This document shows, one piece after another, positions 2,911 through 24,000 of a DNA stretch of 24,000 nt. The translations under genes were made by a program, and so were the position numbers. This stretch comes from Nitrososphaerota archaeon (GTDB taxonomy: Archaea > Thermoproteota > Nitrososphaeria_A > Caldarchaeales > Calditenuaceae). Position 1 is the first letter of the stretch, and every line of letters starts with the position of its first letter. The notes beneath the pieces were generated by a model. The model was not told the origin of the DNA. It searched no databases and saw only the letters and a list, made by a program, of their open reading frames with translations. Location: positions 71,400 through 95,399 of the forward strand of contig JAWBQR010000006.1 in assembly GCA_038845265.1 (NCBI GenBank). Direction: 5' to 3'.

Positions 2911-2926
2911 TTTGATATAAAGCTAT

Positions 2927-3298: not shown

Positions 3299-3323
3299 GA
3301 ATCCAGTTTTAATAATGTTTAAG

Positions 3324-3333
3324 ATATATTTAA
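3324..3333 (-). promoter_or_regulatory. TATA-like box (TTAAATATAT on the minus strand) for the HTH regulator / RAM-protein pair
   Basis: The box is centred about 30 nt upstream of the ATG at 3298, in the 51 bp gap downstream of dtdA. Confidence 0.35.
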
Positions 3334-3349
3334 GCTATATATCGCTACA

Positions 3350-4204: not shown

Positions 4205-4274
4205 CCCTAAGTCAATTATTCCATTTTGTTACCTTATAATAAGTGTGAAAAATGATATATAGGGAGGCTGTCAA
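4205..4274. promoter_or_regulatory. Divergent promoter spacer between dtdA (-) and the radical SAM gene (+)
   Basis: This 70 bp AT-rich gap contains TTATAATAA (4234-4242) and GATATATA (about 4253-4260). GGGAGG at 4262-4267 is a possible ribosome-binding site for TTG 4275. Confidence 0.35.
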
Positions 4275-5873: not shown

Positions 5874-5904
5874 ATTCATAATGGTTTTCTAGGAAAAAGT
5901 TGTA

Positions 5905-8611: not shown

Positions 8612-10924
8612 TTAAACTATTTCCAATAATTTAAGAATGAATGCCTGACCAGCTGATATGCATCCGTCATTCGGGGGGAGTCTTTTACTCATTTTGAGGA
8701 TTAAACCGGAGTTTTTTAAGGACGATTCAATTCCTTGAATAATGTACTCATTTACGGCTGCACCACCACTAACATAAACAACATTACTTCCATAATTAAG
8801 TGCTTCTTCTAGTGCTGCATTGCCAAGTAGTTTCCCAATAATTAATTGTGCAGTGTACGCAATATCTTGACTTTTCGTATTATCTATCAGATCGACTAAT
8901 TGACGAATTATCTCCGTCGAAGGAATGATTCCATCCTTGTAGTTAATTAGGTCTGAAGTTAATAGTTTAATTTCTCGCCCATTACTAGCATGTTCTTCAA
9001 GCAAAATTGCTGGTTCACCCTCATATGTACGCTCTTTACATAATTGCAAAAGGACAGAAACGCTATCAAGTACTCGGCCGGTGCTAGACGTTAATTGTCC
9101 CCTTCCAGATTTAGCCAAAGATATACATTGTTGGAACTCTTCGAAGCCGTGGGGAAAATAATGAATTAATCCTCTTCTCTCGAATAATCTTACGATTTCT
9201 TCTTCACTCAATATTTTGCTTAGAATTGATACAAGCATTCTAGCCGGATATTTAGTAGCTAGGTCTCCTCCAGGCATAATTTGATACTCGAGATGAGCTT
9301 TTCTTTCAATTTTTTCAGAATCCCATGTAAGTATCTCGCCTCCCCAGATTGCTCCATCCTCGCCATATCCTGCACCATCAATCGTTATTGCTACAGCTGG
9401 TTCATCAATGTCGTGTAGATTATCAAGCATGGCTGATGCCATATGCGCTTTATGATGCTGAACTTTGATTAGCTCCGATCCATATTTATTACTCCAATTT
9501 TCAGCAAGAAGAGAAGAACTATAAAGAGGATGTAAATCAGAAACTATGATTGCGTCTTTTGGATTGATTTTGTAATAATTACATAACCTATAGAGATATT
9601 TCTCAAGGTCCTTATAACACTCGTATTCATCAACATCGCCGATATATTGTGTAGGAATTATTTTGTTGTCTATCGCTATCGCGCCCGTGCTCTGTAGATC
9701 TGAGCCGAATGCGATGACAGGTCTACTGAATCTTAGATTAGTTTCTATCCATCTAGGCGCATACCCTCTCCCTCTTCTTAAGAATACTGCCTCGCCCCTA
9801 GTAAACCTAATGACTGAGTCATCAACTCTGTTTATTATACGTCTATTATGTACTAGGAAATAGTCTGCCACACTTGTCAACTTCTTTAAATCCTCTTCAC
9901 CAATTATCATGGGATGACCAGTAGGGTTTCCGCTTGTCATTATTGCAAATTTATCCTTAATATTCATCAATAAGAGATAATGAAGCCCCGTATATGGTAT
10001 GAAAACTCCCAAGGTGTTTAGTCCTGGTGCTACTAAAGGAGAAACATTAGCATCAGCAGTCCTAGGCAGAATTAATATCGGTCTCTCATAACTCAGCAGT
10101 AATTTCTCAGCCTTATCATTTACCAAAACAAGTTTTTTTAAAATCTCAAGATTTAATGCCATTATAGCGAAAGGCTGTCTTGGACGATGCTTTCGGAGGC
10201 GTAGCTTTAAGACAACCTCGTCATCAGATGCTAGGCATGCTAAATGGTAGCCTCCAATGCCTTTGACAGCCACGATGCATCCTTCATTTATCAGTTTGGC
10301 GGTTTCAAGAATAGGGTCTCTGACATTTAGCAATTTTAAATCGTTGTCAAGTAGATTTAGTCTCGGCCCACAATATGAACAGCTGATTCCCTCTCCGTGG
10401 AATCGTCTTATATCTGATACATTATTATATTCTTCAATGCAGCTGGGACATAGCGGGAATTCTTTCCAACTAGTGTTATCTCTATCGTAGGGTATACTTT
10501 CAATGATAGAATACCTTGGACCGCACCATGCACATGAATTAAACGCATATGCATATCTCCTATTTTCTTTGTCGAGGATCTCTTTTAGACACCACTCACA
10601 GATACTTATGTCTGGAGGAACTTCAGAAATGAGGAGGGAGTCTGAAGAACTTTTATGAATAGTAAATTCATTGAAGTTGTTTGGTTTCGCGTCATTAATT
10701 ATTATTTTTTCTATCTTTGCTGTCGGAGTTATACCTTTTTCTATGGATTTGATGAAAAGTTCAACTTTTCTGTCTTCACCCTCTACCCAGATCTCGACTT
10801 CTCCTCCACCCAGGTTTTTTACATATCCATTTACTCCTACACTTAATGCGAGACGAGTGATGGCGGGTCTGAATCCTACACCCTGAACAACGCCAGTGAC
10901 AGTTATTCTAACAGCCCTTAGCAT
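8612..10924 (-). CDS. hypF: [NiFe]-hydrogenase maturation carbamoyltransferase HypF
   Basis: The 770 aa protein has an N-terminal acylphosphatase domain (VTGVVQGVGFRP), two CxxC...CxxCGPR zinc-finger pairs, and YrdC-like and Kae1-like C-terminal regions. It overlaps hypE by 7 nt. Confidence 0.95.
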   Translation of the reverse strand: MLRAVRITVTGVVQGVGFRPAITRLALSVGVNGYVKNLGGGEVEIWVEGEDRKVELFIKSIEKGITPTAKIEKIIINDAKPNNFNEFTIHKSSSDSLLISEVPPDISICEWCLKEILDKENRRYAYAFNSCAWCGPRYSIIESIPYDRDNTSWKEFPLCPSCIEEYNNVSDIRRFHGEGISCSYCGPRLNLLDNDLKLLNVRDPILETAKLINEGCIVAVKGIGGYHLACLASDDEVVLKLRLRKHRPRQPFAIMALNLEILKKLVLVNDKAEKLLLSYERPILILPRTADANVSPLVAPGLNTLGVFIPYTGLHYLLLMNIKDKFAIMTSGNPTGHPMIIGEEDLKKLTSVADYFLVHNRRIINRVDDSVIRFTRGEAVFLRRGRGYAPRWIETNLRFSRPVIAFGSDLQSTGAIAIDNKIIPTQYIGDVDEYECYKDLEKYLYRLCNYYKINPKDAIIVSDLHPLYSSSLLAENWSNKYGSELIKVQHHKAHMASAMLDNLHDIDEPAVAITIDGAGYGEDGAIWGGEILTWDSEKIERKAHLEYQIMPGGDLATKYPARMLVSILSKILSEEEIVRLFERRGLIHYFPHGFEEFQQCISLAKSGRGQLTSSTGRVLDSVSVLLQLCKERTYEGEPAILLEEHASNGREIKLLTSDLINYKDGIIPSTEIIRQLVDLIDNTKSQDIAYTAQLIIGKLLGNAALEEALNYGSNVVYVSGGAAVNEYIIQGIESSLKNSGLILKMSKRLPPNDGCISAGQAFILKLLEIV

Positions 10925-11973
10925 ATCCTTGGAACCGGATCACCAATAGGCGGAGGAATGATTCTTTTACCACCAATAGTTGTCTCTAAAATTACACCTT
11001 TAAATGAATCGGTAACGTATCCGATTATACTTGCTTGGCTCCAACCTGAATTCTTAATTGATTCAAGAATTTCTTCGGCCTTATCGTTTATGACACTCAT
11101 TACAACCTTTCCTTCGTTTCCAACCTCAAGTATGTCGATGCCTAACAATTCAGACGCTGCCTTAGCTGCTGAACTTATTGGTAATGCGTCTTCTCTAATG
11201 ACGAATCCGAGCCCTGTATTTTCTGCCCACTCATTTAACAATCCAGCAAGTCCTCCCCTTGTCGGGTCTTTTGCGCAAGTAACGCCGCCGACCTTCAATG
11301 CCTCTCTCATCAATTTATTTAGAGGGGCTACGTCTGATTTTACGTCTGATTTAAAGCCCAATTCTCCACGCGCAGCAAGAATTGCTACTGCATGGTCGCC
11401 GAGGGGGCCATTCAAAATTATCTTATCTCCAGCCCTAATGTTTTTAGTTATAAGCCACATCGAGGAATGGTCATCCCTACTTCTCTTAATTATTTCGTAG
11501 TTTTGCATTAATTCTTGGCCGGGTACCCCTATGCCGGAACAGTTAATCAAGAGTTTATCGACTCGGCCCTTCTCAACTACTTTTGTATCACCAGTAATTA
11601 TTGAGGTTTCTGCCTCAAGAGCTGCCTCCCTCATGCTGTTTAAGATCTTTTCAATATTGGAAATCTCAAACCCCTCTTCGATTATTAAGCCGCAAGATAC
11701 TCCAAGAATTTTTGTTGCTCCTTTAACTGCTAAGTCATTAATTGTTCCGCACACAGCCATCCTACCGATATCGCCTCCTGGAAAGAATAGTGGATATACA
11801 GTGTACGAATCAGTTGTAAATGCTATACCGTTAACAATTGCTGAATCTTCAAGGAGATAGAGAGGTACATCAATATTCCTGGATAAATCACCAAAATATT
11901 TTAAAACATACTTATGAATAAATTGCAGCATATATTTTCCGCCCGCGCCGTGAAGCATTGTAACATTATTCAT
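10918..11973 (-). CDS. hypE: Hydrogenase maturation protein HypE (carbamoyl dehydratase)
   Basis: The protein has a PurM-like fold pattern, an N-terminal HGAGG, and the diagnostic C-terminal PRIC ending in the thiocyanate-carrying Cys. Confidence 0.95.
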   Translation of the reverse strand: MNNVTMLHGAGGKYMLQFIHKYVLKYFGDLSRNIDVPLYLLEDSAIVNGIAFTTDSYTVYPLFFPGGDIGRMAVCGTINDLAVKGATKILGVSCGLIIEEGFEISNIEKILNSMREAALEAETSIITGDTKVVEKGRVDKLLINCSGIGVPGQELMQNYEIIKRSRDDHSSMWLITKNIRAGDKIILNGPLGDHAVAILAARGELGFKSDVKSDVAPLNKLMREALKVGGVTCAKDPTRGGLAGLLNEWAENTGLGFVIREDALPISSAAKAASELLGIDILEVGNEGKVVMSVINDKAEEILESIKNSGWSQASIIGYVTDSFKGVILETTIGGKRIIPPPIGDPVPRIC

Positions 11974-11979
11974 TGTTGA

Positions 11980-12792
11980 TCACTTATTCTTGGGTTTAGA
12001 AATAAACTGTTCAAGCGCCTTAGCAAAACCTTCTGGAAGCTCGATGGACTCCGTTAAAGAGGTATCGGTACATACTCCGACAGTGTAAATATCAGCTGCT
12101 AGCTTATTAGAAGTTTTATTCCAGACAAAATTGCGGAACTTCACATGTTTTCTACCTATTTCTTCAACCCAGACAATTACTTCGATCTCATTGTCCAACC
12201 GGACTGGAGAGAGTATTTTTCCCCCCGTCTCGACTGTCGGTATGAAACGGCCGAATTTATGTATCAGTGTTGAGTATCCAAACCCAACGCTTGCTAATAG
12301 CTCTTGTTGACACCGCTCACAGAACTTGAAATAATTAGTATAATGCATAACCTGTAAATAATCCGTGTCTGAAAGAGATATTTTATATGTCCTTTTGAAA
12401 GCATTGCTAGGAATTTCTAACTTATCTTTTGTATCAACTTCATCATCTTCGTTTATATCTTTACCTACCCCCTCAATGTTTTGGGCATCGAGGCCAAGAC
12501 TTGATAATAATTTTTTAAAATCCGCCATAGCTTTAGAACTCGCTTCCTCAGGGCTAAGCCCCATTTCTCTATAGTTTATTTCTGCTAACTCGGAATACAG
12601 CGCCAAATTTGTCGCTACATCTTTAGGGTCCATTTTTCCAATTATAACTCCTGCGTGAACCATTACAAAATCATTTATATTTACATCGTCTATCGCCAAT
12701 AGAGCTTCCCTGACTACGCCTCCAAAATCTATCTTGGCTATTTTATTTTCATTATCAATTTCTAAAACTTTACCAGGTGCTCCCCAACACAT
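11980..12792 (-). CDS. hypC: HypC (Fe(CN)2CO chaperone) fused to a C-terminal 4HBT/YbgC-like hot-dog thioesterase domain
   Basis: The protein starts MCWGAPGKVLEI (the essential Cys2 HypC signature) and its first ~72 aa look like the HypC OB-fold. Residues 73-130 form an acidic/Ser-rich linker. Residues ~131-250 (YKISLSDTDYLQVMHYTNYFKFCERCQQELL...) resemble acyl-CoA thioesterases of the 4HBT class. The reading frame is a continuous 270 codons. Confidence 0.85.
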   Translation of the reverse strand: MCWGAPGKVLEIDNENKIAKIDFGGVVREALLAIDDVNINDFVMVHAGVIIGKMDPKDVATNLALYSELAEINYREMGLSPEEASSKAMADFKKLLSSLGLDAQNIEGVGKDINEDDEVDTKDKLEIPSNAFKRTYKISLSDTDYLQVMHYTNYFKFCERCQQELLASVGFGYSTLIHKFGRFIPTVETGGKILSPVRLDNEIEVIVWVEEIGRKHVKFRNFVWNKTSNKLAADIYTVGVCTDTSLTESIELPEGFAKALEQFISKPKNK

Positions 12793-12795
12793 ATC

Positions 12796-14022
12796 TTATT
12801 CCCCTTTATTGATTAGTGAATTTTTAATGTCTCCATGTTTTGCCCATACATTACATGTCCCCTCAATCGATACCATGCATGGTCCCCACGGTGTCTCGGG
12901 CGTGCATGATTTCATAAATAGTGGACAATCTGTTGGTTTGGATATTCCGAGCACTACTTCCCCGCATCTACAGTTAGGAGGCAAATCGTACTTCCCGGGC
13001 TCTCCGAAATGCGCATGAGTCATAACATACTCAGAAGGTGAAGCGTCAGGTATACCAAAATACTCAAAGGCATCATAGATCTTCCTGAAATCTTCTCGAA
13101 ACATTAATCCACTTCTCGCTATCATGCCAATCCCCCTCCAGGCGGCGTATGTGGGCTGAAAAACCTCATTCACCATTTTTTTTACATAAGAGTTACCATT
13201 AGGTTTAACTAACCTTTTGTACTCGATTTCTAGTCTTGGTTTTTGGTTATCAATCATTTTAAGAATTGTTGCGATCGCCATTAGTATATCTATTGGCTCA
13301 AATCCCGTAACAACGGTTGGGAGACCGAAGTTTTCAGGAAGAAATCGCCACTCATAACCGCCAATGACGGCCGAGACATGTCCAGGCGCTATGACCCCCA
13401 TTATAGGGAGTAATCCTCTTTCCTTGTACAGCTTTACAGTAAACTTCATCGCTGGCGGAGTGAGACGTACAAGACTCATGAACTTAAGGTTGGTTGGTAC
13501 CTCTCCCTTATAAAAGAAGAAGCCGTAAATAGGTAAAATTGTCTCAAAGCCTATTCCGAGAAATATGCTTTCCTTTTTATGTGTTTTTGCGTCTTTTATG
13601 GCGTCAAAAAATGAATAGACAACTTTGACTTCAGCGCCCAGGGACTTTGCTTCATAAAGAGATCTTGCTGGTGTTTTAGGCCTACTTGAAGGAAGCCTAA
13701 GTGCATCGCCATATGTATAAATAGTATATCCTTCAAGTGCAAGCTTAATAGACATATCTATGTAGTTTGACGGCACTACGCATACTGGGCAGCCTGGACC
13801 GGCTACAAGCTCTATGCTTCGTGGCAATAAGCTCCTCAATCCATAATGCGTTATAGCCCATTCATGCGTACCGCAGAAATGCATTATCTTAATTAATGAA
13901 TTATTTTCGAATTGTTTTTTCATGATTTTCTCTGCATATTTTTTGATTATTCCAATTAATGATGAAGCAAGTTCACGGTTGCTTCGAAATATATCCTGAA
14001 CAGTTCTCAGCTCTGGTTGCAA
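12796..14022 (-). CDS. hypD: Hydrogenase maturation protein HypD
   Basis: Diagnostic motifs are present: FCGTHEW, GPGCPVCV, GFET, PGHVS and a C-terminal Cys cluster (CRCGEV...CPLFMKSC...GPCMVSIEGTC). The start is TTG at 14022, overlapping the protease gene by 16 nt. Confidence 0.95.
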   Translation of the reverse strand: MQPELRTVQDIFRSNRELASSLIGIIKKYAEKIMKKQFENNSLIKIMHFCGTHEWAITHYGLRSLLPRSIELVAGPGCPVCVVPSNYIDMSIKLALEGYTIYTYGDALRLPSSRPKTPARSLYEAKSLGAEVKVVYSFFDAIKDAKTHKKESIFLGIGFETILPIYGFFFYKGEVPTNLKFMSLVRLTPPAMKFTVKLYKERGLLPIMGVIAPGHVSAVIGGYEWRFLPENFGLPTVVTGFEPIDILMAIATILKMIDNQKPRLEIEYKRLVKPNGNSYVKKMVNEVFQPTYAAWRGIGMIARSGLMFREDFRKIYDAFEYFGIPDASPSEYVMTHAHFGEPGKYDLPPNCRCGEVVLGISKPTDCPLFMKSCTPETPWGPCMVSIEGTCNVWAKHGDIKNSLINKGE

Positions 14023-14498
14023 TTAATATGGTCACCTCTTCTAGTAATTTTCATAATGATGTCAAAAACATTCTTTGTAATTGAATCCAATTTTTCGGAA
14101 ATTTCTAGTGAAATATTATCTCCAATTGTATATGGATCTTTTGTTTCAATTGCAATTATATGTATAAAGTTAGGACGAAGTAATTCTAGTGCATGGATAG
14201 CCATCAAGGCTTCAGGAAGTCCTGCATAATGAGGTGAAAACACAGACATGGATTTCATTAAATCCCCATCCAGTTCGTATACGTGTCCTACTGGATGTTT
14301 GTTGCTTCTTATACCATCAACTATTATGACCATGTCGTAGCCGTGAATGTAATCTAGTAATGAGAGTCCTGTTTTTTCTAAGATATGCGTATCAATACCC
14401 ATTTTTTCTAGTTCTCCCATCAGACGTTTCCCTACTTCTATTCCTACGGCATCATCCCTGTAAATAGGATTACCGAGGAATAGAACGACTACTTTCAC
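14007..14498 (-). CDS. [NiFe]-hydrogenase maturation endopeptidase (HycI/FrhD/HybD family)
   Basis: The N-terminal VVLFLGNPIYRDDAVG motif, the IIVDG and SPHYAGL motifs, the 163 aa length and the position directly downstream of the large subunit all fit this family. Confidence 0.85.
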   Translation of the reverse strand: MKVVVLFLGNPIYRDDAVGIEVGKRLMGELEKMGIDTHILEKTGLSLLDYIHGYDMVIIVDGIRSNKHPVGHVYELDGDLMKSMSVFSPHYAGLPEALMAIHALELLRPNFIHIIAIETKDPYTIGDNISLEISEKLDSITKNVFDIIMKITRRGDHINCNQS

Positions 14499-14504
14499 AG
14501 CCGA

Positions 14505-15965
14505 TTATAAATTATGCCGAACTACATTAAGTAGTTTGCCATTCATGTCATAAATGTATACAGCTAGTGGCATATTCCCCGGCAGTGAATGAGTTCCACA
14601 CGCATGGCATGGGTCATAGGCCCTAAACGCCATCTCTATCATGTTTAATATACCTTCATTTATCTGGCCTTGTCTGATCAATTGTTTTGCTGCCTTATCA
14701 ATTGATAAGGCAATTCTTGCAGCATTGTTTTGTGTAGCGACTATGAGATTAGCCTGTTTAACTACTCCACGTTCATCAGTTATGTAGTGATGTATTAATG
14801 TGCCTCGAGGCGCCTCAACGACTCCCATACCTTCACTTGGTTGATCTTTAGGAATATTTCTTATATTTTGATCAGTTATATCAGGATCATTTGCTAATTC
14901 CTGAATTCTTTCTGCTGCATAAATCATCTCTATCACCCTTGCCCAGTGGTTTGCGAGAGTGTGATGAACAGGTCTACCAATCATCGAAATCATTTCCTCA
15001 AATGCTGATTGTGCCTCATGTGTAGGTAATGATTGAGAAACATTAAGTCTCGCAAGGGGTGCTACACTATATATCCCGCTATCTTCTCCATCAATGAATC
15101 CTTTCCAACCTATTTTCTTTAGGAAAGTGAATTTAATATATGTCCATGGCTCAACATGTTCTCCAACATATTCTAAGTACTGATGTACATCAAATTTAGC
15201 AAATTCATTACCCTTTGGGTCGACTACTCTTATTTTTCCATCATAGAAGTTGAGCTGGTTCTTCTCATCAACTAAACCCATATAATAGGTTCTATGTGTA
15301 TATGCATCGCTAGTTATAAGATTGAAGTATTGGTCATTACTTAATACTAGAGTTTTAAACAGCTTCATGGTAAATTTTGCAAATTCTACAGACTCTTCTG
15401 CTACTTGTTTTATTTTTTCTAACTCATTATTTTTTATTGGTCTTGAGACTCCGCCAGGCACTCCTGATACTGGATGGATTGTTTTACCACCCAGCATTAG
15501 ATTTATTTCTCTAAGTTTTTTACGAATTGATATAACTCTTAGCACATTTTCTTTACCAACCTTGTTAATTACTCCCAGTATGTTTCTTTCTTCTTTAGGT
15601 GAAGTCGGTCCAACTATGAAATCTGGTCCTCCTAATATATAGACGTGGAGAGCGTGGTCTTCAAGCATGAATATGTTATACATAAGTTCTCTAATCTTTC
15701 TGGCAGTCAGTGTTGGAGGGCAATTATAGAGGTCATCAAGCGTTTTCGTAGAAGCCATGTGATGCGCCATAGGGCAGACACCGCATATCCTAGCAGTGAT
15801 TTGCGGCATGTCCTCGACTGCCCTTCCCTCGGCAAATTTTTCAAATCCCCTGAGTTCTGGTATTTGGATGTATGCTCGGTCCACGTTTCCAACATCATTT
15901 ATAAATATGATTATCTTCCCATGTCCTTCAAGCCTAGTTATTGGGTCAATTACTATTTCTCTCAC
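14505..15965 (-). CDS. mvhA: [NiFe]-hydrogenase large subunit, MvhA-like (group 3c-like)
   Basis: RLEGHG and the proximal Ni-binding RICGVCPMAH motif are present, as is the C-terminal DPCHACGTH followed by a 27-residue extension (SLPGNMPL...RHNL) expected to be removed by the endopeptidase. The genomic context includes MvhG, MvhD and HdrA-like genes. Confidence 0.93.
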   Translation of the reverse strand: MREIVIDPITRLEGHGKIIIFINDVGNVDRAYIQIPELRGFEKFAEGRAVEDMPQITARICGVCPMAHHMASTKTLDDLYNCPPTLTARKIRELMYNIFMLEDHALHVYILGGPDFIVGPTSPKEERNILGVINKVGKENVLRVISIRKKLREINLMLGGKTIHPVSGVPGGVSRPIKNNELEKIKQVAEESVEFAKFTMKLFKTLVLSNDQYFNLITSDAYTHRTYYMGLVDEKNQLNFYDGKIRVVDPKGNEFAKFDVHQYLEYVGEHVEPWTYIKFTFLKKIGWKGFIDGEDSGIYSVAPLARLNVSQSLPTHEAQSAFEEMISMIGRPVHHTLANHWARVIEMIYAAERIQELANDPDITDQNIRNIPKDQPSEGMGVVEAPRGTLIHHYITDERGVVKQANLIVATQNNAARIALSIDKAAKQLIRQGQINEGILNMIEMAFRAYDPCHACGTHSLPGNMPLAVYIYDMNGKLLNVVRHNL

Positions 15966-16948
15966 TTTCTCACACTCCTGAGAATATTTCTTAAGCCTGA
16001 TTTTGGAAGCGAGTATTTGTAAATTAAACCTAAAATGTCCGGGAGCTTTGAGATTTCTTTTCTTATTTGTTCTTCATCTTCGAGATCTAGTATACTGCCA
16101 AGGAAGGATATCGCCTTTCCTCCATAATCATGAATATTGTCAAGTGGTCCGAAGCAGCCTGTGCAGGGCATGTTAGCTTTAATGCAGAGCGCACTGCATC
16201 CTCCTCTCGTCACAGGACCTAAGCAGGGCAATCCTTGAACTAGGAGACACTGATTTGGGTCAGGCACGAAGTGGACTACTCGTTTAAATTCTTTAATTAA
16301 TACATTCTCTGGCTTTGTATCATTAAGCGGACATTCATTGCATAACGATTTGTTGCTGGCTCCTATCACTGAGCCCTTGCTGGGAAGCTTTCCTGATAAT
16401 AATATATTGATCGCTTCCCAAGTAACTTCAGGTGTTGGTGGACATCCAGGCACGTAATAATCTACGGTAATAACCTCGTCAAGAGGCTTGAGGCTAGGTA
16501 AAAATTCTGGTAAATCAATTTTAGCACCATTGATTTCTACAGGGCGAGTCTGGGAAGGTATTATTTTCTCAGGATTAACAGTAGTGGGCGTAGTTATATA
16601 GGCCCTTTCAAGTATCTCCTCTCGTCTATAATTGTTTGCTAGTCCAGGAATTCCTCCCCAACATGCACATGCTCCATATGCCACGACGAACATAGATTTT
16701 CTCCTCAGCAATTTTACTATCTTCTCATGTTCGGATAAACGAACACCGCCATTAATGAAGCTCACAGTTATTGAATCATCTGGCATAGCCTCTATGTCCG
16801 GGATCTTGAAGTCCATGGCGACAGGCCAAAACACGATATCGACAAGATTAACCACATCTAAAATTTTCTCACCTAAGTCTACTACTGCTTCTTCGCATCC
16901 ACCACAGCTTGCGCACCAATAAAATGCAACTTTTGGACGTATACTCAT
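15962..16948 (-). CDS. mvhG: [NiFe]-hydrogenase small subunit, MvhG-like; no Tat signal (cytoplasmic)
   Basis: The N-terminal [14 protein letters not shown] and [11 protein letters not shown] proximal-cluster motifs are present, with further Cys clusters ([19 protein letters not shown]...CTGC). The protein begins directly at MSIRPKVAF, with no twin-arginine leader. Confidence 0.9.
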
Positions 16949-17382
16949 ACGGCTTCGACCTCTAATTTGACTGGGCCTAATCTTTTCAGATCTCTAACCA
17001 TTTCATTTACTACTTGTACCCACTTATTTGCTTCCGATGCTGATATCCATTCAAGTCTGAATCGCTCCTTTTCGATTCCTAATTCCTCTAACAATCTTCG
17101 GAATAAGCTATAACGTCTAAGTGCCTTTATGTTTCCACTAATGTAGTGACAATCAGAAGGTGGATGGCAACCGGCTACGATTACACCATCAGCACCCTGC
17201 TCAAATGCCGCGAGGACGAATTGTGGATCAATACGTCCAGAACACATGACTCTGATAACTCTCACATTTGGCGGATACTGCATCCTACTAGTTCCGGCTA
17301 GGTCAACAGCAGCATAGGTACACCAATTACAGGCGAATACAACAATTTTAGGCTCGTAGTCATTAGAGCTCATTTTAGTCAC
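16945..17382 (-). CDS. mvhD: MvhD / FlpD-family hydrogenase iron-sulfur (delta) subunit
   Basis: [18 protein letters not shown]...VMCSGRIDP...[18 protein letters not shown] is the hallmark of the MvhD family. The start is GTG 17382 or ATG 17373. Confidence 0.9.
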
Positions 17383-19315
17383 CTTTTATTAATGCCAAAA
17401 CTTGAGCTAGTACCTGTCTGTCCTTAAAGCTATACTGCTGCATCGCTCCTGATGGACATGCTGCAGAACAAGTACCGCAACCCATGCATAATGCTCTCTC
17501 GACGTAGGCAATCATTCTTCCATTAATTTCTTTGAGTGAAATAGCCTTATATGGACATAAGCCCACGCAGATCCTACAACCACTACACAATTCATCATTT
17601 ACGGTGGCTACAAATGGTTCAGTCTTGACTTTTCCTTTTGATAAGAGAGCAGCCGCCTTAGAAGCAGCGGCACTTCCAGTTCTAATACTCTCAATAATGT
17701 TTTTTGGCCCAGTAACTGACCCTGCTAGAAAGATGCCTTGGGTAGGAGCTTCTACTGGATTAAGCTTGAGATGCGCTTCTCTGAGAAATCCATCTGTGCC
17801 ACAACTAGCTCTGGTAACTGCAAGTAGGTCTATAAGATCCCTTCTCGGAATCATACCTACCGATAAAACGATTAAATCTACCGGTATGCTTATTTCTTCC
17901 TGAATAGTGACTTCATATACGTCAATTAAAATTCCTTCAGGGCCAATGTCCACTACTGGGGGTTCCTCAAATTTGATGAACTTAATGAGATGCTCTCCGG
18001 CCCTCTCATAAAGACTTTCATCATTTCCATAAGTATTGATGTCTTGGTAAAGAATAAACACATCTGTTTCAGGATACTTTTCTTTTATTTTGATCGCATT
18101 TATCAATGTAGATGTGCAGCACATCCTTGAACAATAACTCTTAGAATTGGGCGTTGTATTACGCGAGCCTACGCATAATATAAAAGCGATTCTTTTAGGT
18201 ATCGTTCCTCCTATTATTAATTTTCCCTGAGTTGGGCCGTCTTTATCTAAAAGTCTCTCTAGCTGGAATAGCGTAATTACATTATTATGAAGACCATATG
18301 CATATTCGCCCTTTGGTGGAATGTATGGATCATATCCAGTAGCTATGATGAGTGCTCCAACATTTAAATCCAACAATTTAGGTTGCTCAGATAAATCGAT
18401 TGCATTAAACCTACATGCTTTTACGCACTCGCCACACTTGATGCAGACTCTTTGATCTATAACATACATGAGTGGATAGGCTGTCTTAAATGGATAATAG
18501 ATGGCTTTTCTTCTTGATAATCCATATTGATACTCATCTGACAATTCGATTGGGCACTCAACTTCACATTCTCCGCACAAAATGCATTTTTCATTTATAT
18601 ACCGCGGATTTATTCTGATTTTTGCTTTAAAGTTGCCTGGAAAACCACCAAACTCGATTAGTTCAGAATTTGTGAATACGTGGATCTTTCTATTCTCTGC
18701 AATTTTGTTAATTAAATTATTTACTACATCGGCACCTCTTCTATCACTTTCAAGCCATCCGGTTAGGGCGGCTCTCCCCCCAAGCGTGGGGCTTTTCTCA
18801 ACTAAATAAACTTCAAATCCATATTCCGCAAGGTCAATTGCAGCCCTCATTCCAGCGACGCCACCGCCAAGCACCAAAACGGCGGGATATGTCTGAAACT
18901 CTGTCTCTTCCAATGGTTCTAGGAGAGCGGCCTTGGCAACAGCCATCCTAATTAAGTCCATAGCCTTCTTAGTGGCTGCTTCTCTATCAGAATGAGCCCA
19001 TGAGCAATGCTCCCTGATATTTGCCATTTCTAATAAGTACTTATTCAGTCCTGCACTTTCTATGGCGGACCGGAATGTAGGTTCATGCATTGAGGGTGAG
19101 CAAGCAGCAACTACAACTCTATTCAAATTATGCTTCTTTATCTCTTCCTTTATCAATTCTTGGCCTACAGTTGAGCACATAAACACATAGTCGTGACTCA
19201 CTATAACATTCGGAAGTTTCTTTGCATATTCACTGACTGTTTTAACATCTACTTTTGAGGCTATGTTATGTCCACAATGACAGATAAATACTCCAACCCT
19301 AGGCTCAATACTCAT
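17375..19315 (-). CDS. Full-length HdrA-family flavoprotein (HdrA/QmoB-like, without a fused MvhD domain)
   Basis: The N-terminal domain is HdrA-type ([18 protein letters not shown]) and the FAD dinucleotide fold is [18 protein letters not shown]. An inserted ferredoxin ([23 protein letters not shown]), the HdrA signature CVGSRN...YCSRMCC and a C-terminal 2x[4Fe-4S] ferredoxin ([24 protein letters not shown]) are also present. Confidence 0.85.
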
Positions 19316-20673
19316 GATTTATCACCTTTTATGGTAATTATCTTTTCAATCATATGCCTCTTTGCAATTGTAGAGGCCTTTATCGCGGCTGAACTAGCCA
19401 TCGTTACAGAGTCTGGAATGTCCCTTGCTTCAGCTGCGCCCCCAATGACAAAAATTCCCTCCATAGAAGTTGAGACAGTGTCAAGATAGGGATCCATAAG
19501 CTGTATAAATCCTCCTTTATCTGTCTTCAGTGGTATGGAAGAAATTTTATTAGGCCTAACTGCAACTGATAGAACCACCATATCAAATTCTTCTTTCTTC
19601 ATGTAGCTATGCAGGGTATCCTCATAGAATAATATTAAATTCTTATTGTGCGGGTTCTCAATGATCTTGACTACTTTACCTCTGACATATTTTACTCCAT
19701 ACTCCGTCATGGCTCTTTTGAAGAATTCATAGAATCCCTTACCAAATGCCCTCATATCCATAAAATAAATCGTAGTATCCACGTCTGGAATGTGTTCTTT
19801 TGCTAGAATCGCTTGCTTCGTAGCGGCCATGCAGCAAAACGCAGAACAGTAATGATTGAATCTTATATCTCTTGAACCAACGCATTGAATCCAAGCTATC
19901 TTTTTTGGATGCTTTCCATCTGACCTTCTAATTAACTCTCCATTTGTTGGTCCTGTTGATGATACTAATCTCTCAAACTCTAGATGAGTGTAAACATTCT
20001 GATATTTACCGTAACCATACTCAGGAATGTTACGTGCATCATATAGGTCTAGACCAGTAGCGACTATTATCGCTGCGACATTAATCTCAATGATTTCTGA
20101 CTGTTGATTATAGTCAATAGCCTTTGTTGGGCAAACCTTCTCACATGCACCACATAACGGCTTTCCTTTTGCTTTTTCTTTAAGGTCAGGAGGTGGGTTT
20201 AGTCTCAGACATTGTGTAGGATCAATCAGTGCTTTTCGCGGGACTGCCTGAGGATATTCAATGTATATTGCCTTTCTTTGGCTGAGATTTGCGTTATACA
20301 GATCTGAGACTTTAACCGGGCATCGCTCGATACATGTCCCGCATCCTGTACATTTATTCCAATCAACATATCTTGGCTTCTTTAAAATCCTAACTGTAAA
20401 ATCCCCTATCTTTCCTTTTACTTCCTGCACCTCTGAATACGTCAGAAGCTTTACATTACTATATCTCAGAAGCGCTGCCATCTTTGGAGTCAATATGCAT
20501 GACGCACAGTCAAGTGTTGGAAACGTCTTGTCAAGTTGTGCCATCTTTCCACCAATACTCGGATTCTTTTCTACTAGATAGACTTCAACTCCGTGTTCGG
20601 CGAGGTCAAGACTGGCCTGAATTCCCGCAATACCGCCACCTATTACGAGTACTGGTTTACTCAAGTATCTCAC
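19312..20673 (-). CDS. Short HdrA-family flavoprotein (QmoA-like)
   Basis: The protein starts directly with the FAD fold (VLVIGGGIAGIQASLDLA) and GGKMAQLDKTFPTLDCASCILTPKM. It has an inserted ferredoxin (CTGCGTCIERCP, CGACEKVCP) and CVGSRD...YCSAFCC. It lacks the N-terminal Cys domain and the C-terminal ferredoxin of the 646 aa paralogue. The start is GTG. Confidence 0.8.
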   Translation of the reverse strand: MRYLSKPVLVIGGGIAGIQASLDLAEHGVEVYLVEKNPSIGGKMAQLDKTFPTLDCASCILTPKMAALLRYSNVKLLTYSEVQEVKGKIGDFTVRILKKPRYVDWNKCTGCGTCIERCPVKVSDLYNANLSQRKAIYIEYPQAVPRKALIDPTQCLRLNPPPDLKEKAKGKPLCGACEKVCPTKAIDYNQQSEIIEINVAAIIVATGLDLYDARNIPEYGYGKYQNVYTHLEFERLVSSTGPTNGELIRRSDGKHPKKIAWIQCVGSRDIRFNHYCSAFCCMAATKQAILAKEHIPDVDTTIYFMDMRAFGKGFYEFFKRAMTEYGVKYVRGKVVKIIENPHNKNLILFYEDTLHSYMKKEEFDMVVLSVAVRPNKISSIPLKTDKGGFIQLMDPYLDTVSTSMEGIFVIGGAAEARDIPDSVTMASSAAIKASTIAKRHMIEKIITIKGDKS

Positions 20674-21787
20674 CTCTTATGAACCCTTTTCTCGCGCTTA
20701 CGTAATTAGCGATTGACTTGTATAACCAGTGGTTATGTTTGCCGAACGGTACCTCGAGTAAAAGGAAGGGAAAGACGACACCAATATGTAAGACATAAAT
20801 TACATAAGACATGAAATAAACATTTAGATCGTTAAAGATATTCATGAGTAGGCCTGTTAAGCCTATTACGAAGACATACCCTAAACTAATCCAATCAGTG
20901 GAGTGTCTAAACATCTTATAATACCAATGAATCTTTGGAGAATTACTAAGACGCTTAACAAATGGTAAGCCTGCACCGACTACGAGTAGCAGAGCAGCTA
21001 CGTATCTACTCGCCATAATCACGTATGCGAATGGATAGATAGAGTAAATTGCGGGATAGATCAAGTAGATAAGGACTAGCAATATGTATAGAATTATCCC
21101 TGCTAGTATGAACATATGTTCAAGAATCCTTATTCTTTTATCGGAAATTTTTAATGCGTCATTCTCACTCTTTATCCAAAATCTTAATACTCTCTTAAAT
21201 GATTCGAAGAAACTGATGACATAATCTTTGCCGCCACCCACAAATTTGTACATTCTATATCCATTGCTTGCTAATAATCCAAGGCTAAGCACTGTTAAAA
21301 GTATTCCTATTGGTAGTATTTCAGGCAAGTTTACAAAAACGTTTTTTGATAAATAATTCATTATTGAGGAATAGAATATCGATAATAATCCAACGATAGA
21401 GATCATTGATAGAATAAAAGTGACCAAGAGTTTTTTCTTTAATGAGGAGAAGTACCACCACTTTGATATTCCTGTCCAGTCGTAAAGCGTGCTTTGGTAT
21501 CTTCTTAATGATGCTAGTATCTCACATGGATTAGCATCTCGTGGACATGCTTCAATACAGTCTCCGTGAACATTACACAGCCAAGGCACTAGGTCTTTCT
21601 GAAGCTTATCCACAAATCCCAGTTGCGCATACTTAATTACTCTTCTAAAACTAATAAACATGCCTTCAGCTATAGCACAGGTTGCAGTGCAGGAACCACA
21701 TTGATAGCATTTGAAGATGCCTTTGCCTCCTAGTTCTATTATTTCCTTGTTGATATCTTTAAAAGATATATAAGGAGTTGCCTTCAT
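20657..21787 (-). CDS. QmoC-like membrane protein 2: HdrC-like FeS domain fused to a NarI/HdrE-like cytochrome-b domain
   Basis: The N-terminus has CYQCGSCTATC and a variant CNVHGDCIEACP motif, followed by about 6 hydrophobic helices. The conserved His residues (EHMF, RHSTDW, LHIG) and the terminal VPFGKHNH resemble the PF(S/T)(K/R)LxH end of NarI-family di-heme proteins. The 376 aa length is similar to QmoC. Confidence 0.7.
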   Translation of the reverse strand: MKATPYISFKDINKEIIELGGKGIFKCYQCGSCTATCAIAEGMFISFRRVIKYAQLGFVDKLQKDLVPWLCNVHGDCIEACPRDANPCEILASLRRYQSTLYDWTGISKWWYFSSLKKKLLVTFILSMISIVGLLSIFYSSIMNYLSKNVFVNLPEILPIGILLTVLSLGLLASNGYRMYKFVGGGKDYVISFFESFKRVLRFWIKSENDALKISDKRIRILEHMFILAGIILYILLVLIYLIYPAIYSIYPFAYVIMASRYVAALLLVVGAGLPFVKRLSNSPKIHWYYKMFRHSTDWISLGYVFVIGLTGLLMNIFNDLNVYFMSYVIYVLHIGVVFPFLLLEVPFGKHNHWLYKSIANYVSARKGFIRGEILE

Positions 21788-22950
21788 ATTTTTGTCACTT
21801 CAGTTATTTTGGATTGACGAATTTCGTTAATTTTAGAGAAATATAAAGCGATGGGGCGGTAGGCAATATGTGCCCACTTCGTGAACGGTACACCTAATAT
21901 GAGAAATGGCACAACGACCATTAGATGGAGTGAGAAAACTACGTATGTACCTATTGGCCATCCAATACTTCTAAATATGCCTGTTAACAATCCTGTAATG
22001 GATATCAGTACTAATAGAATGATGAACATCCAATCAGTTGGATGTGAATATTTCCAGAGTGGTTTATTCTTTTTAATGCGCCCGCTAATTACTGTAAGTC
22101 CTCCATAGGCAATTGTAAAGACCGAAAATAGTCCAATTATGCTAAGGGGTGAAACGAATAAAAATGGATCATTTGTATGCGTAAACACCAAAAGCAGTTC
22201 GAACAGTACTAGAGAGGCTACATAGCCATAAAATATTAATAAATGAACTAACCAGTATTTTCTATCATTGCAATAGCTGAATAGCTTCTGTGTAAGGAAA
22301 TTAGGAATAAGCGTCTTAAAGAATTCTCTAACATAAATCAACAAAGGCAGTTTTACTTTAAGGTTTGAAGTTAGTCGATACATCCGGTAAATATTTATGA
22401 GAAGTATTGATGCGAGAACCGCAAAAATGAGCCGTCCAGCATTTTCCACGATTTCTATTGGAGCAAAGACAGCTAAAGCCACCTGATCTAGTATTATCGG
22501 TCCATGAAACAGGTAAATAATAATGCCTGTTAAAATTGATAATGATAAGATTGCAAAGAGCAATATCTTATTGTTAAGATATAGTAGTTTTGAGATTCCG
22601 GTCCAGTCATAAACCATGGTTAGATATCTTCTAAGCGTCATCATAAGCTCGCTTGGATTTGCATCACGTGGACAAGAATTACTGCACTCTCCGCAGGCAT
22701 AACATAACCATGGTGTCAGGTCGCTTGATATTTTTTTATCTAGTCCAAGCTGAGCATATTTAATCGATCTTCTAAAACTAATTAAGTAATCCTCAGATAT
22801 TGGACAAATCGCAGTACATGACCCGCATTGATAGCACTTCATAATTCCATCGCCGCCTAATCTAATTATTACGTCGGTAATCTTTTCTTCTTTTTGAATC
22901 GGCATTAATAGTGTTGCCACAGGCTGCCTTATTCCCATGCTACTATTCAA
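21784..22950 (-). CDS. QmoC-like membrane protein 1: HdrC-like FeS domain fused to a NarI/HdrE-like cytochrome-b domain
   Basis: The N-terminus has CYQCGSCTAICP and CYACGECSNSCP motifs, followed by about 6 hydrophobic helices. The His residues (VHLL, SHPTDW, LHLM) and VPFTKWAH match the NarI-family pattern. It is a paralogue of the downstream gene, with a 4-nt overlap. The start is TTG 22950 or ATG 22938. Confidence 0.7.
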   Translation of the reverse strand: MNSSMGIRQPVATLLMPIQKEEKITDVIIRLGGDGIMKCYQCGSCTAICPISEDYLISFRRSIKYAQLGLDKKISSDLTPWLCYACGECSNSCPRDANPSELMMTLRRYLTMVYDWTGISKLLYLNNKILLFAILSLSILTGIIIYLFHGPIILDQVALAVFAPIEIVENAGRLIFAVLASILLINIYRMYRLTSNLKVKLPLLIYVREFFKTLIPNFLTQKLFSYCNDRKYWLVHLLIFYGYVASLVLFELLLVFTHTNDPFLFVSPLSIIGLFSVFTIAYGGLTVISGRIKKNKPLWKYSHPTDWMFIILLVLISITGLLTGIFRSIGWPIGTYVVFSLHLMVVVPFLILGVPFTKWAHIAYRPIALYFSKINEIRQSKITEVTKI

Positions 22951-23078
22951 TATTTAAATTATGACTATATATAGATGTGTTTAATTGGACTTACTGCATT
23001 AAGTTAAATATATCTGTATCTATTTGAAATTAATTGTAGGTAAGACATACATTTTAGTTAGAATTGTGACGTAAATTT
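22951..23078. promoter_or_regulatory. Divergent AT-rich promoter region between the hydrogenase/qmo-like/hyp cluster (-) and hypA (+)
   Basis: This 128 bp intergenic spacer is the only sizeable non-coding gap next to the cluster. It contains TATA-like elements (TTTAAATA on the minus strand at about 22952-22959, TATATATA at about 22966-22973, and AAATATAT near 23005). The assignment of boxes to genes is not resolved. Confidence 0.4.
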
Positions 23079-23081
23079 TTG

Positions 23082-23489
23082 ATGCATGAATTCACCGTAG
23101 CAATGGGGATTGTAGATTCATTAAAAGAATTATATTTAAACAAGGGTTTCAAGATTAATAGTTTCAAGATAGTTATCGGTGAATTATCGATGTTTAATCC
23201 AAGCATAATTAATGATCTTGTTAGAGAATTAATTAAGGAAACAGAATTAGAAAACACTAAATTTAAAGTAATTATTGAGGAAGCAAAAATCAAATGTGAA
23301 TCATGCAATGAAACTCACAGCTTTAATGAACTCTCAAAACAGTTAAGTGAGGAAGAAAAAGAGATGATTCATTTTATTCCTGAATTAATTTCATCATATA
23401 TGAAGTGTCCATCATGTAGTAGTAGAGATCTAAAGATTATGAGTGGGAGGGGAGTAAAGGTGATTGACATTGCGTTGCAAAAACGATAA
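23082..23489 (+). CDS. hypA: Hydrogenase nickel-insertion protein HypA
   Basis: The N-terminal MHE nickel-binding motif requires the ATG at 23082; the track start at 23079 is an upstream TTG. The zinc site is CESC...CPSC. The ~135 aa length is typical. Confidence 0.9.
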   Translation: MHEFTVAMGIVDSLKELYLNKGFKINSFKIVIGELSMFNPSIINDLVRELIKETELENTKFKVIIEEAKIKCESCNETHSFNELSKQLSEEEKEMIHFIPELISSYMKCPSCSSRDLKIMSGRGVKVIDIALQKR

Positions 23490-24000
23490 GGAAATAATAG
23501 ATTATAGAGAATCCCTAATAAGAAAAAGGCTTAGCAAGATATCGTCTTCAATTTTTATCGGTAGTGGTAAGGGTGGAGTCGGTAAAAGCCTAATAGCAGC
23601 GACGATGGGATTAATACTAAGCTCTGAGGGTTTCAAAACTGGACTTTTAGACCTAGATATGCACGGCCCTTCATCATCTGCAATTCTTAATATTAATGAG
23701 CTACCACGCGAAGAAAAAGAAGGGTTAAAGCCACCAACAATATGTGGATTAAAGGTCATGTCTGTAGGCTTGTTTGTAAAGGATTCGCCATTACCATTAG
23801 GCGGCCAAGCAAAAAGAGAAATCTTAAAAGAATTACTAGCGATTACAGACTTCGCCACTCTTGACTATTTAATAGTAGATCTTCCCCCTGGAACAGGTGA
23901 TGAGTCATTGGCAGCAATCAATTTTATTACTAATAATAGAGGAGTAATTCTAGTCTCTACACCCTCACTATTGTCACTCGAGGTCGTGAGACGAACTGCT
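23465..24000 (+). CDS. Mrp/MinD (ApbC/Nbp35)-family P-loop ATPase, likely the archaeal HypB-type Ni-insertion partner; 3'-partial
   Basis: This ORF is not in the supplied track. I translated the frame by hand and it is open from 23465 to the window end: ...RLSKISSSIFIGSGKGGVGKSLIAATMGLIL...DLDMHGPS...LDYLIVDLPPGTGDESL.... It carries the deviant Walker A GKGGVGKS and Walker B DLPPGTGD. The only candidate starts are TTG 23465 and TTG 23471, both overlapping the end of hypA. Confidence 0.8.

Follow-up and report, generated by a model that had tools for sequence, protein, structure and literature searches.

A Caldarchaeales operon couples an Mvh-type [NiFe]-hydrogenase with a Qmo-like membrane module: a candidate for hydrogen bifurcation to quinone and ferredoxin

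Whether Qmo-type HdrA modules carry out flavin-based bifurcation, and which protein acts as their third partner, are questions that date to Ramos et al. 2012, who listed a hydrogenase among the candidate third partners of Qmo (PMC3333476). These questions are raised again by a gene string in a 24,000-nucleotide (nt) stretch of a Caldarchaeales metagenome-assembled genome (MAG) (GenBank assembly GCA_038845265.1, contig JAWBQR010000006.1, positions 71,400 to 95,399 of the forward strand; hereafter the window), in which genes for an Mvh-type [NiFe]-hydrogenase, MvhAGD, are joined to genes for two HdrA-like flavoproteins and two QmoC-like membrane proteins. To which acceptors would such a hydrogenase deliver electrons from H2? 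We lean, with moderate confidence, towards a membrane-attached complex in which H2 would be bifurcated to quinone and ferredoxin, a reading drawn from gene content, conserved residues and synteny.

The seven structural genes occupy positions 22950 to 14505 of the minus strand as an unbroken string of open reading frames (ORFs) of 388, 376, 453, 646, 145, 328 and 486 amino acids (aa), whose junctions overlap, in order, by 4, 17, 4, 8, 4 and 4 nt (Table 1). These measurements agree with a preliminary description of this DNA, which had reported seven consecutive minus-strand genes overlapping by 4–17 nt and had called the hydrogenase and Qmo-like genes co-operonic. Overlaps and synteny bear out the latter term, but the unit reaches further than described: it extends past 14505 on the same strand through hycI, hypD, a hypC–thioesterase fusion, hypE and hypF down to 8612, with junctions that are either overlaps or gaps of at most 6 nt (hycI begins 6 nt downstream of mvhA). 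The arrangement QmoC–QmoA–HdrA–MvhD–MvhG–MvhA was found in 23 loci from Thermoproteota, Archaeoglobi, Bacteroidota and untyped metagenome contigs. Given this recurrence of the same gene set and order in several phyla and untyped contigs, the finding is not due to chance; the MvhAGD–QmoA–HdrA–QmoC operon is real and conserved, and the persistence of its synteny from Thermoproteota to Archaeoglobi and Bacteroidota speaks for a joint function of the hydrogenase and Qmo-like genes. The window's QmoC1 is 100% identical to a GenBank protein (P0001) on contig JAVZLJ010000001.1, which belongs to the MAG DRTY-6_201907_bins_5 from a Tengchong hot spring (1.14 Mb, 90% complete; PMC11094006, supplementary file 5). 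The Genome Taxonomy Database (GTDB) lineage of that MAG is Thermoproteota; Nitrososphaeria_A; Caldarchaeales; f__HR02; g__DTDI01 (PMC11094006), and family HR02 has since been named Calditenuaceae (PMC10547907).

The Mvh-linked loci comprise MAGs of Caldarchaeales, Nitrososphaerales, Bathyarchaeia and Gearchaeales (L001–L005, L015, L022), of Archaeoglobales/Archaeoglobaceae (L021, L026, L028) and of Bacteroidota (L014, L016, L017; order qmoA-qmoC-qmoB-like-mvhD-G-A), together with ten untyped metagenome contigs, namely L027 and nine from a metagenome scan with a QmoC alignment. The best 80 loci of that scan were kept, 39 of them at least 8 kilobases (kb) long, and the sample is biased to relatives of the archaeal query. 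Among these 39, QmoC was Mvh-linked in 9, linked to TusA/DsrE in 15, Apr-linked in 4 and adjoining HdrB in 1, and had no recognised partner in the available DNA in the remaining 10. From these contexts, QmoC is a portable module that adapts three or more sets of partners to the membrane, and its hydrogenase-linked version is common. The commonest metagenomic context has the order (dsrE)-tusA-mvhD-qmoA-hdrA-(small ORF)-qmoC with no hydrogenase, and such sulfur-carrier-linked Qmo-like modules were seen in L023, L025 and the 15 metagenome loci (for example L034, L084, L100 and L107).

Profile and structure-database matches identify the soluble hydrogenase subunits. MvhD is an FlpD-domain protein (Pfam E=9.5e-56) with PDB chain 5odc_D as its top match (176 bits, near full length). 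MvhG finds its top PDB match, over its full length, in 5odc_E (225 bits, vs only 110 bits for 7t2r_E), scores 212 bits against the NCBIfam VhuG model and, on reading of its N-terminus, has no twin-arginine motif; MvhD and a small subunit without a Tat leader were what the preliminary description had proposed. MvhA, described there as an MvhA-like large subunit, deserves that name on its best NCBIfam model (VhuA, 377 bits, under the 800-bit cutoff) and on both nickel-iron motifs, RICGVC at residues 59–64 and DPCHACGTH near the C-terminus; it also matches Pfam NiFeSe_Hases and carries a C-terminal extension for proteolytic maturation. Its PDB matches nearly tie, at 367 bits for 7t2r_D (A. mobile NiFe-HydABCSL) and 363 bits for 5odc_F (MvhA). 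MvhAG is likely an Mvh-type, group 3c-like cytoplasmic [NiFe]-hydrogenase by sequence, and hdrA lies directly upstream of mvhD-mvhG.

The two flavoproteins between the hydrogenase and the membrane proteins divide the features of methanogen HdrA between them. The 453-aa protein covers the HdrA core only (positions 139–566 of the HdrA2 model) and has neither the N-terminal domain nor the C-terminal ferredoxin domain; over residues 4–642 the 646-aa protein matches 5odc_A, the HdrA of M. thermolithotrophicus, at 643 bits. We aligned both paralogs from the 23 Mvh-linked clusters to the M. thermolithotrophicus sequence, rebuilt from the printed 5odc_A alignment, and tabulated the functional residues. 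In 23 of 23 clusters the small subunit retains C194/C197, E356, K409, the cluster cysteines of the thioredoxin reductase (TrxR) domain and all eight cysteines of the inserted ferredoxin domain, and in all 23 it lacks the C-terminal ferredoxin domain; the N-terminal cluster domain is absent from the small subunit of the archaeal clusters. Large HdrA has both of these terminal domains and keeps the TrxR-domain cluster cysteines, is without C194/C197 in every cluster and has lost K409 in 9 of 23, the window included. The window's own large HdrA reads R194, D197 and I409, with E356 and the eight cysteines of the inserted ferredoxin domain retained. Thus the HdrA feature set (four domains, E356, K409 and C194/C197) is distributed over the window's two flavoproteins, and the same split is found in canonical QmoA/QmoB from the apr-linked loci L006, L011 and L024.

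The preliminary labels of these proteins, a QmoA-like flavoprotein and an HdrA-like flavoprotein of full architecture, fit what we found: the former has the C194/C197 pair and inserted ferredoxin domain of canonical QmoA, and the latter all four domains with a full-length 5odc_A match. The accompanying idea that the large protein and MvhD amount to a split QmoB stands in its domain logic but not in sequence, where the 646-aa protein is nearer to HdrA (643 bits) than to bacterial QmoB (about 25% identity) and retains the inserted ferredoxin domain that QmoB is without. K409 with E356 has been proposed as the signature of bifurcating HdrA (PMC12054007), and in the Hdr-Vhu-Fwd structure the Cys/Sec197 pair sits between the N-terminal A3 cluster and the flavin adenine dinucleotide (FAD) (PMC13518236). 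The complementary pattern of residues and domains suggests that the small and large flavoproteins pair as an obligate heterodimer, the counterpart of the HdrA homodimer, and that its single bifurcating flavin is carried by the small subunit. Given the complete set of C194/C197, K409 and E356 in every cluster, the bifurcating site would most likely be the small-subunit FAD.

Two variants of the flavoproteins were observed outside the archaeal Mvh-linked clusters' usual form. In the bacterial-type clusters (L014, L016, L017, L050–L061, L098 and L106; Bacteroidota and similar metagenome sequences) the QmoA-like protein is about 600 aa long, extended at the N-terminus by about 150 aa without cluster cysteines, and the QmoB-like protein is without the inserted ferredoxin domain. 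In L009 (Thermoprotei; 186–2141) an HdrA adjoining a type-1 QmoC has K409->Y, E356->H and several lost cysteines of the inserted ferredoxin domain; it is a degenerate and presumably non-bifurcating variant by its residues.

QmoC1 and QmoC2 would provide the membrane attachment. Against the NCBIfam qmoC model NF038018, QmoC1 scores 183 bits (positions 8–360 of 360) and QmoC2 143 bits at full length, both under the equivalog cutoff of 300 bits. Their N-terminal domains are HdrC-like (PDB chain 8rvu_c, 53 bits), and hydropathy predicts six transmembrane helices in each and none in the other five proteins. H236, H303, H342 and H361 (QmoC1 numbering) are kept in both paralogs and nearly family-wide, so that the roughly six helices and four conserved histidines noted earlier for each membrane protein agree with hydropathy and alignments. 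The AlphaFold2 model of QmoC1 has a predicted local distance difference test score of 83.6. All eight cysteines of the iron–sulfur (FeS) motifs are conserved in QmoC1, as the preliminary description's two Cx2Cx2Cx3C motifs in both proteins would have it; in QmoC2 the second motif departs from that pattern and reads CxxHxxCxxxC, as it does (C-x2-H-x2-C-x3-C) in every QmoC2-type protein examined. The FeS ligands are accordingly eight cysteines in QmoC1, and seven cysteines plus one histidine in QmoC2.

No alternative acceptor module (HdrB/CCG or Apr) is encoded in the window. The CCG-domain pattern did not occur in any of its six frames, there was no PF02754 match, and none of its ORFs of at least 80 aa matched the Apr, Sat or Dsr families; profile and six-frame scans are thus in accord with the earlier statement that the window has no CCG-domain ORF and no aprAB, sat or dsr gene. 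The broader phrase 'no HdrBC' holds for the window plus 9 kb upstream, and Mvh may be shared with a canonical Hdr encoded elsewhere in this genome: in a relative, the Caldarchaeales MAG locus L005, hdrC, hdrB (CCG) and a fully featured hdrA, at 3792–7213, lie directly upstream of hypDCE-qmoC-qmoA-hdrA-mvhDG. In the same locus mvhA was not found, and a minus-strand LAGLIDADG endonuclease ORF (15833–16936) lies downstream of mvhG where mvhA would be expected.

From these elements we infer that the proteins form a complex, that the flavoproteins pair as a heterodimer, that heme and quinone are bound, that electrons are bifurcated and in which direction they flow, as follows. MvhAG would dock via MvhD onto the heterodimer of the QmoA-like protein and large HdrA, which would mirror the methanogen HdrA homodimer with pseudo-symmetry. 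This heterodimer would in turn rest on the HdrC-like FeS domains of the two QmoC proteins, and the cytochrome-b domains of QmoC1 and QmoC2 would link it to a putative quinone pool. The reaction would be 2 H2 + quinone + 2 Fd(ox) -> quinol + 2 Fd(red), where Fd is ferredoxin. Electrons would enter through MvhAG and MvhD to the FAD of the small subunit, with the N-terminal cluster domain of the large subunit and the MvhD dock serving this FAD/CxxC site in trans. The high-potential branch, from FAD over the TrxR-domain [4Fe-4S] cluster and the HdrC-like clusters to the putative hemes b and quinone, would replace HdrB and the heterodisulfide, and low-potential electrons would exit to ferredoxin by way of the ferredoxin-like domains. 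The required cofactor ligands are present (NiFe motifs, HdrA cluster cysteines, QmoC FeS motifs and the four histidines), which supports this scheme, as does the lack of another acceptor module in the window. Textbook potentials (-414 mV for H2, about -74 mV for menaquinone, about -450 to -500 mV for ferredoxin) would make the coupled reaction exergonic.

Several points weigh against this assignment. The NarI/HdrE-type cytochrome b identity of the membrane domain is weakly supported by sequence: the Pfam Nitrate_red_gam match is sub-threshold and limited to QmoC1 (16.8 bits vs a cutoff of 22.9), and Foldseek against the PDB together with profile search returned only HdrC, for the N-terminal domain, and no NarI, although a PF02665 match is precomputed for some QmoC homologs. 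Hydropathy topology places three of the four conserved histidines on the cytoplasmic side and one on the outer side, so that two bis-His hemes are not obviously accommodated. The quinone pool of the host organism is itself presumed and putative. NarI and HdrE bind quinone at the outer face; with such a site here, electron transfer from H2 to quinone would dissipate membrane potential and be wasteful. As K409 and the CxxC pair are missing from it, large HdrA may hold a non-bifurcating or merely structural FAD, and the hdrCBA genes adjoining the cluster in L005 raise the point that other acceptor modules may share the hydrogenase. Biochemical characterisation of any member of this cluster type was not found in the literature.

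The loss of K409 and the CxxC pair from the window's large HdrA would also suit an enzyme that does not bifurcate at all, in which the HdrA-like pair is an FeS/flavin wire from MvhD to QmoC and H2 is taken up for respiration with no role for ferredoxin. Electron transfer from H2 to quinone alone is strongly exergonic, and Caldarchaeales relatives have been described as respiratory (PMC10547907). For a wire, however, the K409, E356, CxxC pair and eight-cysteine inserted ferredoxin domain that the small subunit keeps in all 23 clusters would be superfluous, and group 1 H2:quinone enzymes manage with a far smaller module; we regard such an oxidoreductase as unlikely. We give the same low standing to a further acceptor encoded elsewhere in the genome (HdrBC, a DsrC/TusA-type sulfur carrier or another reductase), served by H2 with or without quinol as donor, in the way that Qmo serves AprAB. 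Ramos et al. 2012 proposed that Qmo requires a third partner (PMC3333476), the hdrC-hdrB(CCG)-hdrA genes stand beside the cluster in L005, and TusA/DsrE with MvhD, QmoA and HdrA is the commonest QmoC context in the metagenome loci (15 of 39, with Apr-linked loci at 4 of 39). No such acceptor is encoded in the window or the 9 kb upstream, though, and with the exception of L005 none was seen beside the cluster at the loci inspected: gene tables and ORF scans of L017, L021, L022 and L026–L028 showed none, and tblastn with AprA/AprB/Sat, TusA/DsrE and HdrB found no partner at the nine Mvh-linked metagenome loci.

The same proteins might also run in the opposite direction, with reduced ferredoxin and quinol co-oxidised to H2 as a means of electron disposal in low-H2 fermentative growth. 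Modules of the NarI/HdrE/QmoC kind usually take electrons from quinol and pass them inward (Ramos et al. 2012, PMC3333476), group 3 hydrogenases can work in both directions (PMC11094006), and the Calditenuaceae have been described as amino-acid heterotrophs (PMC12979851). Energetics speak against such confurcation, which we hold to be improbable: the mean donor potential would be about -290 mV, well above that of H+/H2 at -414 mV, and the reaction would need very low H2 plus work against the membrane potential. That the hydrogenase and qmo-like genes are independent units, adjacent by accident, is a formal possibility that we consider very improbable indeed. The genes overlap by 4–17 nt, their order is kept across archaeal and bacterial phyla, MvhD as the Hdr-docking subunit lies between both halves, and in Ca. 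M. hypatiae the genes of the equivalent cluster are expressed together (10.1101/2023.09.08.556235).

The two membrane proteins of the window differ in kind. By sequence there are two QmoC subfamilies, type 1 and type 2, and the window lineage carries both in tandem. QmoC2 falls in a separate long-branch clade with fixed differences from type 1: its signature is C86->H in the second FeS motif and an HWYYK insertion before H303, and it is without F218/T220/Q221, C227 and W233, otherwise nearly invariant, while tandem type-2 copies retain all four conserved histidines. The tandem pair of types 1 and 2 occurs in the window's genus, L001, L002, L029, the Gearchaeales locus L022 and the metagenome contig L027. 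That QmoC2 might be a recent degenerate duplicate was considered and ruled out, as a type-2 protein is the sole QmoC in the otherwise identical Archaeoglobales MAG clusters L026 and L028, and QmoC2 is better conserved than QmoC1 between the window and Gearchaeales (69% vs 57% identity). The window's QmoA, HdrA and MvhD are 66–78% identical to their counterparts in type-2-only clusters and 57–71% to those in type-1-only clusters; from this, the operon looks like a type-2 cluster with an additional type-1 QmoC upstream. A strict tie between K409 loss in large HdrA and type-2 QmoC was also considered; it held at first in 12 of 12 loci and was broken by L032, which has only type-1 QmoC and yet K409->S in large HdrA.

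One use of two subtypes would be a non-redundant pair in which each docks one flavoprotein, giving two membrane exits, for example a quinone-reducing exit together with a quinol-oxidising or transmembrane one. H2-driven bifurcation at one FAD, that of the small subunit, would then be coupled to a redox loop across the membrane, in a membrane-integral bifurcating hydrogenase with an asymmetric HdrA core and with coupling to proton motive force. We offer this as a speculative extension that is decidedly unlikely. A protein identical to QmoC2 (P0121; QmoC2 at 20657–21787) is labelled 'Halobacteria archaeon' in GenBank, on contigs of at most 5.6 kb; as the same gene is present in Caldarchaeales MAGs, the label is probably a binning or taxonomy-label error.

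Positions of the cluster and its maturation genes are collected in Table 1. In GenBank the QmoC1 gene begins at the ATG at 22938 (384 aa). The divergent intergenic region in front of it holds, on reading of the sequence, the element CTATATATAG about 27–36 nt upstream of this ATG, a candidate archaeal TATA box.

Table 1. Coordinates of the hydrogenase–Qmo-like operon, its maturation genes and the divergent region, numbered within the window
Feature	Position	Strand	Description or basis
QmoC1	21784..22950	-	type-1 QmoC; HdrC-like 2x[4Fe-4S] domain + 6-TM (transmembrane) putative di-heme cytochrome b
QmoC2	20657..21787	-	type-2 QmoC paralog, 34% identity to QmoC1
QmoA-like flavoprotein	19312..20673	-	453 aa; HdrA thioredoxin-reductase core + inserted 2x[4Fe-4S] ferredoxin domain
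Large HdrA (QmoB-like role)	17375..19315	-	646 aa; 5odc_A match
MvhD, [2Fe-2S] adaptor subunit	16945..17382	-	Pfam FlpD; 5odc_D match
MvhG, [NiFe]-hydrogenase small subunit, cytoplasmic	15962..16948	-	Pfam Oxidored_q6; VhuG model; 5odc_E match
MvhA-like [NiFe]-hydrogenase large subunit	14505..15965	-	VhuA model; 7t2r_D, 5odc_F matches
Hydrogenase maturation endopeptidase, HycI/HybD type	14007..14498	-	TIGR00072, 75.7 bits, above cutoff
hypD	12796-14022	-	equivalog model above cutoff
hypC fused to 4HBT thioesterase	11980-12792	-	Pfam HypC + 4HBT domains
hypE	10918-11973	-	equivalog model above cutoff
hypF	8612-10924	-	equivalog model above cutoff
hypA	23079-23489	+	divergent; Pfam HypA; NF003008 at 118 bits
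AT-rich divergent intergenic region	22951..23078		read from sequence

The fusion of HypC to a 4HBT/YbgC-type acyl-CoA thioesterase (270 aa) was also seen in L001 and L002; HypC is short and stand-alone in L004, L005 and L021. Against the model of the 1,4-dihydroxy-2-naphthoyl (DHNA)-CoA hydrolase MenI the fusion scores very weakly (28.8 bits vs a cutoff of 225). Downstream of hypA, a Mrp/ParA-family ATPase gene (259 aa; 23470–24000, plus strand) runs off the window end and is found at 8690–9469 in L018; as no canonical hypB was seen, its product may be the nickel-insertion partner of HypA. A 118-aa minus-strand ORF at 23502–23858 has no family match and is probably spurious.

On the other side of the operon, the plus-strand gene at 4275–5873 encodes the radical-SAM tetraether (glycerol dialkyl glycerol tetraether, GDGT) lipid synthase Tes (NF045702 at 726 bits vs a 450-bit cutoff), which fits an archaeal origin; a role in methanopterin biosynthesis, to which the Pfam 'HMPTM zinc ribbon' match at the same gene would point, is ruled out by the Tes equivalog match. 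A ZnuA/ABC/ABC-3 metal transporter occupies 35–2389, and the flank 35–4204 also holds an Lrp/AsnC regulator, a helix-turn-helix (HTH) protein and a D-aminoacyl-tRNA deacylase. A TRZ/ATZ-family amidohydrolase (5905–7257) and a BMP-family substrate-binding protein (7227–8510) follow. The genes at 35–4204 and 5905–8510 appear unrelated to the hydrogenase cluster. Scans of the 24-kb window for tRNA and Rfam families returned no RNA features.

An Mvh and Qmo-like operon without Apr or HdrB is a self-contained test system whose reactants would be H2, quinone and ferredoxin, and thus an experimental handle on whether Qmo-type modules bifurcate. Within it, the complementary-residue pattern singles out the small-subunit flavin as a target for mutation. 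The cluster is widespread, in archaea and Bacteroidota as well as in the metagenomic QmoC loci counted above; if the bifurcating H2:quinone/ferredoxin reading is true, it would be a major, unrecognised way in which H2 supplies, in geothermal and anoxic habitats, low-potential ferredoxin pools as well as respiratory chains.

How does the window cluster compare with described systems? The preliminary description could not tell whether the arrangement had been characterised; at the genomic level, the cluster type has already been published for Ca. Methanoglobus, and the same mechanism proposed for it. Buessecker et al. 2023 reported MvhAGD, two HdrA homologs and an HdrC-QmoC fusion in Ca. Methanoglobus nevadensis, with no AprAB, Sat or DsrAB, and speculated that electrons pass among menaquinone, H2 and ferredoxin (bioRxiv 10.1101/2022.12.01.518715). 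In Ca. M. hypatiae, Lynes et al. 2024 detected this cluster as well, with high expression of 995–2,431 reads per kilobase per million mapped reads (RPKM), and put forward the hypothesis that H2 electrons are bifurcated to menaquinone and ferredoxin (10.1101/2023.09.08.556235). The cluster was not mentioned in the literature checked on Caldarchaeales, Calditenuaceae, Nitrososphaeria, the genomics of anaerobic methanotrophic archaea (ANME) or the HdrA diversity of methane-metabolising archaea. The Ca. Methanoglobus and window clusters share their gene set, the lack of HdrB, AprAB, Sat and DsrAB, and their proposed function. They differ in that one QmoC was reported in Ca. Methanoglobus whereas the window has two tandem paralogs of types 1 and 2, in their hosts (an Mcr-bearing archaeoglobal organism there, a Caldarchaeales MAG here) and in the hyp genes, which in the window continue the string on its downstream side. 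In L021, a locus from an Archaeoglobaceae MAG, the genes run hypDCE-qmoC-qmoA-hdrA-mvhD-G-A-hycI, and the encoded proteins are 53–69% identical to those of the window.

With the QmoABC complex of sulfate reducers (Pires 2003; Ramos et al. 2012, PMC3333476) the window cluster shares an MvhD module, the layout of QmoC as an HdrC-like FeS domain joined to what is here a putative cytochrome b domain, and a pair of HdrA paralogs, one small and of QmoA type, the other large and of QmoB type, between which domains and the CxxC pair are lost and kept in the same complementary way. Unlike in QmoB, where it is fused, MvhD is a separate 145-aa ORF in the window; in L024 the canonical QmoB has 739 aa and an FlpD domain, whereas the window's 646-aa protein ends after its C-terminal ferredoxin domain. 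The window's large subunit has the inserted ferredoxin domain, its operon encodes a hydrogenase, both of its QmoC proteins fall under the NCBIfam equivalog cutoff, and neither the window nor L018 has the aprBA/sat linkage of canonical loci that is seen in L024. To methanogen HdrABC-MvhAGD (PDB 5ODC; Wagner 2017) it is linked by MvhA/G/D matches of 363/225/176 bits, the 643-bit match of large HdrA and the HdrC-like domain. It departs from that complex in having no HdrB/CCG catalytic subunit, in the fusion of HdrC to a putative membrane cytochrome b, and in two unequal paralogs in place of the HdrA homodimer, the large one without C194/C197 and K409.

The TusA/DsrE-linked clusters (L023 from Thermoplasmata, and L025) likewise have a separate MvhD, small and large HdrA paralogs and a type-1 QmoC, but sulfur-carrier genes in place of MvhG/MvhA; in them electrons are presumably exchanged with a sulfur-trafficking system and not with H2. 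EtfABCX (PMC10734219) resembles the proposed system in having quinone as the high-potential acceptor of flavin-based bifurcation with ferredoxin also reduced, and is unlike it in being built from unrelated proteins (Etf/EtfX), with NADH as donor and a peripheral protein rather than an integral cytochrome b. By its gene content and sequences the window cluster is thus a member of the Mvh-HdrA2-QmoC type reported in Archaeoglobi, and neither a canonical QmoABC nor an HdrABC-Mvh. To that type the present analysis adds a Caldarchaeales host, two QmoC subfamilies with their tandem occurrence, and the complementary flavoprotein residues that point to a single bifurcating flavin.

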